From Escherichia coli (GTDB lineage: Bacteria; Pseudomonadota; Gammaproteobacteria; Enterobacterales; Enterobacteriaceae), in the NCBI RefSeq assembly GCF_003334315.1, contig NZ_QOWR01000109.1: 2,574 nucleotides of DNA; one strand, written 5' to 3'. The notes beneath the pieces were generated by a model, which was given only the letters and a program-made list of their open reading frames with translations, did not search any database and had not been told where the DNA came from. The first letter of the stretch is position 1; each line of letters opens with the position of its first letter. Both the position numbers and the translations under genes were made by a program. Below are positions 1-2,574 of this stretch, piece by piece.

Positions 1-61
1 TGTTTTTGTCATGTGAGTCACCTCTGACTGAGAGTTTACTCACTTAGCCGCGTGTCCACTA

Positions 62-397
62 TTGCTGGGTAAGATCAATCAGCTTCCCCCTACGGAAGAT
101 AATAAACAGCCTTCTTTTGATGTTCTTGATGATGATTGGGATGCGCCTTTGCCGTGGGAGACGGAAGAAACACCTGTTTCATCAAGTGAAAAGGTAGCTA
201 ATGATAAGGAGGATGTGTTAGAGAATTTTGCCTCTCTTATCATCCAGGAGAAGACTACTAGAACAGGAGGGGCATCATTTATAGAATTTGCAACATCGTT
301 AGCCTATAAGCACAGGTTAAAGCTACCAAATGGTATTGAGGCATATTTTTCTAAGAATTACCCAAATGTATACGAAGACTTTGATCTTCCCTTTTAA
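62..397 (+). CDS. Hypothetical acidic protein (111 aa) with an SSB-tail-like C-terminal tip ...YEDFDLPF; start codon uncertain
   Basis: Open frame from TTG at 62 to TAA at 395-397. An in-frame TGA at 29-31 rules out any start upstream of 62, and there is no in-frame ATG anywhere in the ORF. No clear SD precedes the TTG, so the start is uncertain; an in-frame GTG at 215 follows an AAGGAGG at 206-212 but the spacing is only 2 nt. The N-terminal half is strongly acidic and low-complexity (DVLDDDWDAPLPWETEE). The downstream gene's SD sits 5 nt after the stop, consistent with an operon. Confidence 0.5.
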   Translation: MLGKINQLPPTEDNKQPSFDVLDDDWDAPLPWETEETPVSSSEKVANDKEDVLENFASLIIQEKTTRTGGASFIEFATSLAYKHRLKLPNGIEAYFSKNYPNVYEDFDLPF

Positions 398-1601: not shown

Positions 1602-1630
1602 TTGACATTTCATATATTGTATGTTAATAT
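1602..1630 (+). promoter_or_regulatory. Sigma-A-type promoter: -35 TTGACA (1602-1607), 17-bp spacer, TGn-extended -10 TAATAT (1625-1630)
   Basis: Perfect -35 hexamer, a 5/6 match at -10 with TG at 1622-1623 in the extended -10 position, and optimal 17-bp spacing. An A-rich tract (1571-1590) sits where an UP element would be. Predicted transcription start is near 1637. Sequence inspection only. Confidence 0.6.
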
Positions 1631-1636
1631 AATTAT

Positions 1637-1839
1637 ATAGGGTGATTATTTTTCCTTTATTGGTTCGATATTAAAAATTCTTCTTGTCGTTAAAGGGGAG
1701 TAAAATCTCCGCTCCCCGCTTCTCCTCCTTAAGTAATACTGTGTCATTTACCTCTTTTTTCCTTTGTTATGCATACATCTTGGAGTGTGCATAACATAGG
1801 GTAATTACAAAGGCGGCTTTAAATGCTGCCTTTTATTTT
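1637..1839 (+). ncRNA. Putative structured 5' leader or small RNA (about 200 nt) running from the predicted start site to the terminator hairpin
   Basis: Bounded by the promoter at 1602-1630 and the hairpin plus U-tract at 1809-1839. It contains a G-rich block AAAGGGGAG (1692-1700) that can pair with any of three CU-rich blocks (1706-1710, 1712-1717, 1721-1727), and an imperfect 10-bp inverted repeat (1767-1776 with 1785-1794). No ORF with a credible SD lies inside. I could not match it to any riboswitch class from memory. Confidence 0.3.
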
Positions 1840-1851
1840 GCCCGTTATGCA
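1766..1851 (+). repeat. Three copies of the 8-mer GTTATGCA: 1766-1773 (+), 1788-1795 (inverted, TGCATAAC), 1844-1851 (+)
   Basis: Exact 8-bp matches read directly from the sequence. The first and second copies form an inverted repeat with a 14-bp spacer; the third lies between the terminator hairpin and the 1902 CDS. Candidate operator half-sites or RNA structural elements. Confidence 0.3.
1809..1839 (+). terminator. Intrinsic-terminator-like hairpin with U-tract (AAAGGCGGC-TTTAAAT-GCTGCCTTT then TATTTT)
   Basis: The GC-rich stem GGCGGC (1812-1817) pairs with GCTGCC (1825-1830) including one G-U pair, is extended by three A-U pairs, has a 7-nt loop, and is followed by TTTTATTTT (1831-1839). 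It sits 237 bp after the stop of the 1234-1572 CDS and 62 bp before the 1902 start, so it could terminate block A, attenuate readthrough into block B, or both. Confidence 0.55.
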
Positions 1852-1901: not shown

Positions 1902-2114
1902 ATGTTGTTCTTAAATGATAAAGAGCAAATCATCAAGTATCGAGATGAAATGCTGCGAATTACTCCACAAATTACCGAAATGGTAGCTAAATACGCTGGG
2001 TGTTCTGTCGAGGAAGTAGAAAGATGTGTTGAAAAATATTTTTCTCCTTCTTCTCCGTCTACACCTTCCCTTAATGAATTAATCAAATTAAAAGCTAAGG
2101 AGATTACTAAATGA
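1902..2114 (+). CDS. Hypothetical small protein (70 aa): N-terminal helical region with possible HTH, Ser/Pro-rich linker, Lys-rich C-terminal helix
   Basis: ATG at 1902 with AAGGT at 1888-1892 (9-nt spacing). The frame is open to TGA at 2112-2114, which overlaps the next start as ATGA. Contains ITEMVAKYAGCSVEEVERCVEKY, then SPSSPSTPS, then LNELIKLKAKEITK. No family recognised. Confidence 0.55.
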   Translation: MLFLNDKEQIIKYRDEMLRITPQITEMVAKYAGCSVEEVERCVEKYFSPSSPSTPSLNELIKLKAKEITK

Positions 2115-2473
2115 TTATTGATTTAGACACTCTGTTTCCAGTTCGAAAGACTTTCACAGATATTGTAAGTTATTGTACTGATCCGTTTGCCTCTGTAGAA
2201 AGCAAGGTTTTTGCTTCTCTTCCTGCTGATGTTGAATGCGGAGACTTGATCACCAGCACGGGCGCTAAATATGTATCAGGAGATGATATCTATGTTGTTA
2301 TGAGTGAATTTGTAACGGCTGGAGAAAACAAGCCTGTAGATGTTTTACGTAGCAATGCTGGCCTTGTGTGCATTAAAGCTGATGCGCTGAATGCTGTAAG
2401 TGAAGCAGCAAAAACAGCATTAATTAAAAAAGGCTTCCAGCTTGAAGGCTTCCACTCTGTTTTCACTTCTTAA
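2111..2473 (+). CDS. Hypothetical acidic protein (120 aa), translationally coupled to the upstream 70-aa CDS
   Basis: ATG at 2111 overlaps the upstream TGA (2112-2114) in an ATGA arrangement. AAGGAG at 2097-2102 gives 8-nt spacing. Open to TAA at 2471-2473. No family recognised. Confidence 0.6.
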   Translation: MIIDLDTLFPVRKTFTDIVSYCTDPFASVESKVFASLPADVECGDLITSTGAKYVSGDDIYVVMSEFVTAGENKPVDVLRSNAGLVCIKADALNAVSEAAKTALIKKGFQLEGFHSVFTS

Positions 2474-2492
2474 TAAAAGGAATAATAATAAA

Positions 2493-2574
2493 TGATTTGG
2501 ATTGGCCCCTATATTTCCATACACTTTTTATCACTTAACCCATTACTGGTTCGCCGCCGCAGATATTCCCGTGG
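2493..2574 (+). CDS. Possible 5' end of a further CDS, truncated by the window edge (MIWIGPYISIHFLSLNPLLVRRRRYSR...)
   Basis: ATG at 2493 follows AAAAGGA at 2476-2482 (10-nt spacing). The frame has no stop through the window end (27 codons). There is no terminator between 2473 and 2493, so it would be co-transcribed with block B. Low confidence because it is short and incomplete. Confidence 0.3.

Follow-up and report, generated by a model that had tools for sequence, protein, structure and literature searches.

The stretch of Escherichia coli DNA analysed here (2,574 nucleotides of contig NZ_QOWR01000109.1, hereafter the window) carries near its left end a short reading frame, 62-397, whose product would end in EDFDLPF, and the question it raises is why a peptide so close to the C-terminal tip of SSB, the protein that binds single-stranded DNA, should sit on a protein that does not look like an SSB. 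The C-terminus of E. coli SSB (EcSSB) is MDFDDDIPF and that of the Gram-positive SsbA is DDDLPF (PMC5531588), and two sources describe the EcSSB peptide as a docking site for PriA and others, with PriA binding the SSB C-terminal peptide in a defined pocket (PDB 4NL8; PMC5531588; PMC5872125). An earlier note, made from the letters of the window alone, proposed that the frame encodes a small, acidic, stand-alone decoy or adaptor that uses its tip to sequester the host's SSB-interacting proteins, as a takeover or anti-defence tactic. The analysis presented here leads elsewhere: we consider it moderately probable that IS3 cut the initiator gene of a satellite-like element, leaving its 3' half as window 78-397, and that the tip of the intact protein, of the SSB C-terminal (SSB-Ct) type, recruits host proteins.

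A reading frame between two insertion sequences

The frame is present with the translation given in the earlier note, and every coordinate offered there proved right, including those of the terminal EDFDLPF and its stop codon, the upstream DDDWDAPLPW, and the AAGGAGG with its in-frame GTG at 215-217 (Table 1). Its product is indeed acidic (pI 4.3, with 21 Asp plus Glu vs 10 Lys plus Arg). A natural gene of 111 codons starting at TTG 62, on the other hand, does not survive inspection. The frame contains no ATG, in-frame stops stand at 14-16 and 29-31, and the TTG, the sole candidate start, has no preceding Shine-Dalgarno (SD) sequence and sits within the inverted repeat of IS3. The first 77 bases of the window carry a terminal inverted repeat and leader identical to those of IS3 together with the start of its orfA gene, the ATG of which is the reverse complement of window 10-12, and IS3 extends beyond the window at this left end. 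Aligned with the IS3 copy of pTB-nb1, the window is identical base for base over 1-77 and diverges thereafter; IS3 matches that reach 90-99 were set aside as chance, gapped extension past base 77, on the alignment of that one copy. Homology to the intact gene described below starts exactly at base 78 in the alignment, and always does so in 5,426 complete E. coli genomes. Because window 1-77 is IS3, it is this insertion sequence that supplies the TTG and the first five to six codons (MLGKI-N). Transcription of orfA runs opposite to the frame, and no promoter-like site lies upstream of it on the + strand. The shorter product that the earlier note had imagined arising from the internal AAGGAGG and GTG fares no better, since only 2 nt separate the two and the intact copy of the gene reads AATGAGGAGGATGCG (N-E-E-D-A) at this place, with no GTG; judged by that comparison, 206-217 is ordinary coding sequence of the acidic stretch and no start site.

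When the window was compared with plasmids by megablast, only its two ends matched, both to IS3-family insertion sequences; 2792 plasmid records gave a match, those at the left end being IS3-like (IS3 family) copies. The junction between IS3 and the gene is absent from the 5,426 complete E. coli genomes (megablast), and an exact 32-mer scan for it across the GTDB representative genomes returned 0 matches. Klebsiella and Serratia plasmids carry IS3-family elements whose ends are 91-93% identical to the right end of the window. The insertion sequence at this end looks IS2-like, and its end (TGGATTGGCCCC... from 2498) interrupts the major capsid gene of the element after codon two. With insertion sequences at both ends, the window is an internal piece of an element bracketed by the two of them.

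Table 1. Features of the window (positions without a prefix) and of related loci (positions or names with the prefix L)
Feature	Position or locus	Strand	Remark
IS3 left end: terminal inverted repeat TGATCTTACCCAGC..., leader, first four orfA codons	1-77	-	
Apparent start (TTG) of the frame, with its first five codons	62-77	+	IS3 inverted-repeat sequence
Initiator-gene 3' remnant: last two bases of codon 117, codons 118-222, stop	78-397	+	
DDDWDAPLPW motif within predicted acidic disordered linker	128-157	+	
Small four-helix C-terminal domain (predicted)	185-385	+	
AAGGAGG and in-frame GTG, encoding D-K-E-D-V	206-217	+	Coding sequence
SSB-Ct-type tip E-D-F-D-L-P-F (374-394), then TAA (395-397)	374-397	+	
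Five further element genes	414-692, 822-1232, 1234-1572, 1902-2114, 2111-2473	+	Syntenic with intact copies
Major capsid gene of the element, codons 1 and 2 (ATG ATT)	2492-2497	+	Cut by second insertion sequence
End of second IS3-family insertion sequence (TGGATTGGCCCCTATATTTCC...)	2498-2574		91-93% identity (see text)
Iteron arrays upstream of initiator gene	L001:9600-10070; L013:3780-3913; L004:7072-7165; L002:1691-1887; L020:6166-6255		
N-terminal module type A	L001, distant L002		Iteron TACCCCTATYAA...
N-terminal module type B	L013, distant L004		Iteron CCCCCACAGAAnnCTGTTA
N-terminal module type C	L012		Iteron differs again
N-terminal module type D	L020		Iteron differs again

The intact gene and its element

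Window 78-397 is 96.6% identical to L001:12001 onward, where L001 is a locus of strain E400634 that holds an intact copy of the gene (L001:11652-12320), and the frame corresponds to the final 105 codons of this gene of about 222 codons, the 222-residue product of which ends NVYDDFDIPF. Residues 1-116, with the winged-helix DNA-binding domain, are missing from the window copy; mapped onto the domain limits predicted for the intact protein, the IS3 cut falls between that domain and the linker that follows. As it has no DNA-binding domain, no promoter and no usable ribosome-binding site, the window copy is most likely a non-functional remnant, and we regard frame 62-397 as probably an inert pseudogene fragment made by IS3.

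The intact protein, of about 220 residues, is predicted to consist of a basic winged helix, an acidic disordered linker of about 60 residues, a small helical domain and a [DE]DFD[IL]PF-COOH tip. AF2 places the winged helix at residues 13-102, leaves residues 100-158 disordered with a pLDDT of about 30 (the acidic linker, with a pI of 4.05 vs 9.7 for the N-terminal domain), and builds a four-helix domain at 160-218 (pLDDT 71-79; mean 77.6 when modelled alone), after which the last three residues form a low-confidence tail. The matches of the protein to PHROGs 428 and 270 (replication initiation), 391 (O-like) and 186 (DnaD-like), with E-values of 2e-10 to 3.5e-8 and all within residues 27-168, and the weak Foldseek matches of its N-terminal domain to a Vibrio cholerae N-domain (4ro3), to RepA_N initiators (4pql, 4pt7 and 5kbj) and to the DnaD N-domain (2v79) are alike modest and confined to the winged-helix domain, which among the two copies is present in the intact homolog only. 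Pfam places HTH_36 at residues 34-83 (E = 1.9e-7). A sequence search of the PDB gave only MarR-like matches, to the winged helix, at a best E-value of about 5e-4, and NCBI (PGAP) names the protein a transcriptional regulator. There were no NCBIfam or PADLOC matches for the initiator and its five neighbouring ORFs, and no informative structural neighbour for the C-terminal four-helix domain.

The family is built from exchangeable parts. At least four unrelated N-terminal winged-helix modules share one linker and C-terminal module, and nearly all full-length members have a DNA-binding domain. The C-terminal module itself is narrow: an exhaustive search for it gave only 11 representative clusters, and it was not found in sequenced phages, with one weak match on a plasmid. 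A rare alternative C-terminal module has no BLASTP similarity to the common one, and a homology search with it gave only two fragments. Co-variation of the C-terminal module with the next gene was considered and discarded, the replacement module preceding the same 92-aa gene. Damaged versions of the initiator gene are common in databases, among them frameshifted forms and truncated or fused C-terminal fragments (P0122, P0123, P0045, P0048 and P0049), as well as a deletion in L019.

Upstream of the gene, at a distance of 1.6 kb in L001, an iteron array lies beside an AT-rich tract (L001:9854-10002 and 10054-10067); such arrays hold 4-6 tandem iterons at a spacing of 18-24 bp, and none is found in the window. 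Four types of N-terminal module go with four iteron sequences, and the pairs are kept in the distant loci L002 and L004 (Table 1). Among the computational evidence for binding of the repeats by the protein, this pairing carries the most weight, and together with the PHROG matches it suggests that the protein is the replication initiator of the element. Two of the element's N-terminal winged-helix modules also occur in tandem in gp154 of Escherichia phage muut, a virulent 146-kb phage (P0053, 332 aa, MN850573.1:81258-81656); P0053, which is without the C-terminal module and the tip, could bind the iterons of the element.

The element is integrative and about 12.5 kb long (L001:7272-19853), and it is bounded by 20-bp direct repeats, one copy of which is the 3' end of a tRNA-Thr gene (thrW), downstream of proA. 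Region 78-2480 of the window was found in 455 of the 5,426 E. coli genomes and was always chromosomal. The element carries a DNA invertase, a non-coding stretch of about 2 kb in which repeat arrays lie, small ORFs, the initiator-like gene, the five ORFs that make up the rest of the window (no PHROG matches), a capsid, a 611-aa tape-measure-like protein, a Dit-like protein and a tyrosine integrase. The capsid gene (L001:14411-15439) belongs to PHROG 29, and in related loci its homologues are assigned to Pfam Phage_cap_E; in those loci a resolvase and an integrase are the only enzymes recognised by Pfam, and the ORFs scanned gave no match to a helicase, primase, loader, terminase or portal family. 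Related copies lie at a second site beside a LysM/M23 peptidase gene (L028-L033 and L004). The gene set looks like that of a phage satellite, and as no description of the element turned up in our incomplete coverage of the literature, the family of satellite-like elements to which it belongs is apparently undescribed.

One intergenic region of the window (1602-1845) has features of its own. At 1602-1630 stands a strong sigma-70-like promoter (TTGACA-17-TAATAT with TG), and at 1809-1833 plus a T run an intrinsic terminator. The transcript of about 209 nt that would run between them folds far better than shuffled sequences (z = -4.9) and includes a CUCCUCCUU stretch complementary to Shine-Dalgarno sequences. 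Its stems are invariant across seven loci, with indels in the unpaired linkers, so that there is no covariation, and Rfam has no match to it; it could be a regulatory RNA that the element encodes.

The SSB-type tip

Homolog alignment, which the earlier note had suggested as a check on the tip, strengthens the case for it. The tip [DE]DFD[IL]PF or a close variant ends 113 of 120 homolog clusters; those without it are truncated or frameshifted or, in the case of the phage muut protein, have another C-terminus. At 31-43% identity, three relatives have the ends YDDFEIPF, YEEFELPF and DYFDTSLPF; among distant relatives neither the proline nor the terminal phenylalanine varies, position -3 holds either Ile or Leu throughout, and in one of them (P0131, DTSLPF) the acidic run is weaker. 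That the tip is selected independently of the domain before it can be seen in this distant [IL]PF end, in the alternative C-terminal module, which ends EEDDFDIPF with tip codons that differ from those of L001 by three synonymous changes, and in L019 (~1-558), where an in-frame deletion removes the helical domain and the tip is kept. The chance of a C-terminal [DE]F[DE][IL]PF is about 1e-7 per protein.

The tip also matches the ends of true SSBs. When IMG/VR was scanned for DFDIPF followed by a stop codon, 20 loci were obtained: 11 encode members of the initiator family, six encode proteins read as SSBs (PHROG 44 confirmed both of those scanned against it, and four are assigned from N-terminal sequence only), one an ImmA-like metalloprotease and one a PHROG 1501 protein, and one was too short to classify. 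Exactly DFDIPF is thus found on phage SSBs and, as true SSB tips include DFDIPF and DDDLPF, both the Ile and the Leu variant of the initiator tip lie within natural SSB tips; the assignment to the SSB C-terminal type made in the earlier note stands. The metalloprotease is of the ImmA/IrrE-like kind with zinc ribbons (L015:~9500-10535; PHROGs 19315 and 87), and the PHROG 1501 protein is encoded at L022:5416-~5890; several kinds of phage protein other than SSBs may bear SSB-type tips. The beta-clamp-binding consensus is QL[SD]LF, and a motif of that kind was rejected for the tip, which is acidic and without Gln.

Also upheld is the view that the protein has no OB fold: neither Pfam nor PHROG assigns it to an SSB family, and the AF2 model is a winged helix plus helices. 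It does have an acidic [IL]PF tip after a disordered linker, with the helical domain in between. Some features speak against docking in the manner of SSB: the tip comes straight after the folded helical domain, where SSB has a long disordered linker, its position -5 is Phe instead of Asp, the acidic run of P0131 is weaker, and AF2 puts YEDFD in a helix, so that only D-[IL]-P-F may be free. The tip has a pLDDT below 50 in the full-length model. The upstream acidic motif noted earlier, DDWDAPLPW, hardly varies in the close family, where L140, P141 and W142 of L001 do not change at all; ELPW is retained in the unrelated replacement module, and no counterpart is recognisable in the relatives at 31-43% identity. 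The motif could represent a further short linear motif, on evidence weaker than that for the tip. In the incomplete literature that we covered, the strings DFDIPF, DFDLPF, DDFDIPF and EDFDIPF occurred in no paper found, nor was there any description of an initiator with an SSB-type tip.

A proposed mechanism, its alternatives and known systems

We infer both the origin function of the protein and the binding of its tip to host proteins. In the mechanism that we favour, the winged-helix domain would recognise the iterons of the element and the intact protein would oligomerise on them, so that initiators bound to the iteron array would display several SSB-like tips. These tips could dock in the SSB-Ct pockets of host SSB-interacting proteins, among which the most useful candidate partners would be PriA or PriC, which would load helicase without DnaA, the primase DnaG and chi of the Pol III clamp loader, and a host replisome would thereby be assembled at the origin of an element in which no gene for a helicase, loader or primase is recognisable. 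More tentatively, and with somewhat less confidence than we hold in the identity of the gene and the recruiting role of its tip, we propose that satellite-type initiators took over the SSB-Ct peptide as such: an initiator bound to double-stranded iterons would imitate SSB-coated single-stranded DNA and so recruit PriA or PriC, primase or the clamp loader. If this is true, origin firing would take place with neither DnaA nor a dedicated loader. Should the tip act as proposed, a minimal element would have a simple way to obtain a host replisome, by joining the peptide of the SSB hub to an origin-binding protein, and a further class of SSB-Ct carriers, none of them SSBs, would be added. The analysis also points to an apparently undescribed family of satellite-like elements in E. 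coli whose initiator and iteron modules are exchangeable. The tips of the ImmA-like metalloprotease (L015) and the PHROG 1501 protein (L022) hint that copying the SSB-Ct peptide could be a wider strategy of mobile elements.

One alternative overlaps with this reading, because it invokes the same docking chemistry: the tip could be aimed at the SSB-Ct binders of a helper phage (recombinases, Orf-like mediators or parts of its replisome), either coupling the element's replication to infection by the helper or interfering with the helper. The satellite look of the element, with its Phage_cap_E capsid, Dit-like and tape-measure-like genes and integrase and no terminase or portal found, speaks for this, as does the interaction of phage proteins such as lambda Red-beta with E. 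coli SSB described in one source (PMC6393309); yet the element has no known helper, and we think a helper target unlikely.

The tip and linker might instead form an autoinhibitory tail that folds back onto the protein's own basic winged helix and competes with DNA, with no docking on host proteins at all. Intramolecular competition with DNA has been proposed for the acidic tails of SSB, T7 gp2.5 and T4 gp32, and both the opposite charges of the N-terminal domain and linker (pI 9.7 vs 4.05) and the order of DNA-binding domain, disordered linker and acidic tip, which parallels that of SSB, would suit such a tail. However, it is the hydrophobic [IL]-P-F-COOH end, more than the charge, that is conserved, a single tip is paired with N-terminal modules of at least four or five kinds, and AF2 leaves the tip undocked in the full-length model (pLDDT <50). 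We regard autoinhibition as improbable.

Still less credence can be given to the idea that the intact protein is a plain transcriptional regulator, with the repeats as its operators and a tip that has no part in replication. The PGAP name, the MarR-family regulators that are its best PDB sequence matches (E about 5e-4) and the generic nature of the HTH_36 family all fit a regulator, and an array of iterons could be an array of operators. The PHROG matches, however, are all to replication-initiator, O-like or DnaD-like families, the repeats are 4-6 tandem iterons spaced 18-24 bp apart and adjoin an AT-rich tract, and a conserved SSB-type tip is hard to explain on a repressor.

The stand-alone decoy is the reading to which we give least weight: its tip is a real SSB-type tip, the fragment, if made, would be a pure tip carrier without a DNA-binding domain, and other independently truncated versions (P0122 and P0123) are called as proteins in databases, but the frame begins in IS3 sequence whose orfA is transcribed the opposite way, with no promoter-like site upstream on the + strand, no SD before the TTG and only 2 nt between the internal SD and its GTG, PADLOC offers no match, nearly all full-length members have a DNA-binding domain, and the frame turns out to be a fragment of a winged-helix replication-initiator family member, an outcome that the earlier note had itself named as fatal to the idea.

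The preferred reading, that of an initiator whose SSB-Ct-type tip recruits host proteins, can finally be set against what is established for related systems. With SSB the protein shares an acidic run leading to [IL]-P-F with a free carboxylate, in the exact form DFDIPF found on phage SSBs, and the order DNA-binding domain, acidic disordered linker, tip. It differs from SSB in having, in place of an OB fold, a winged helix that would bind double-stranded iterons, in a folded helical domain that separates linker from tip, and in position -5, which is Phe where SSB has Asp. The element resembles the phage satellites (PICI, cfPICI and P4-like) in being a small element at a tRNA gene with an integrase, a predicted initiator and origin of its own and a few morphogenesis genes, but its set of a Phage_cap_E capsid, a 611-aa tape-measure-like protein, a Dit-like protein and a DNA invertase matched no satellite family found in the literature. 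The winged-helix initiators (PHROGs 391, 428, 270 and 186 and the staphylococcal RepA_N proteins) likewise have an N-terminal winged helix for iterons and a separate C-terminal recruiting part, and their specificity modules are exchangeable. Lambda O binds P and recruits P-DnaB; pSK41 RepA binds DnaG, which in staphylococcal RepA_N proteins is recruited by a host-specific C-terminal domain. The iterons here, however, are 1.6 kb upstream of the gene, whereas those of lambda lie inside it; a lambda O-type arrangement was looked for, and no repeat array is present within the initiator gene, nor does the downstream 92-aa ORF match any family. Neither a P-like or DnaC-like partner nor a match to Pfam RepA_N or Phage_rep_O was detected, and the C-terminal module with its SSB-type tip is foreign to those families. 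The closest analogy in logic would be the C-terminal domain of RepA_N recruiting DnaG, and also lambda O recruiting P-DnaB, and the protein appears, from its sequence and predicted structure, to be neither an SSB nor a stand-alone decoy: it is best described as a putative winged-helix iteron-binding initiator of a broadly known kind with an apparently undescribed tip of the SSB-Ct type.
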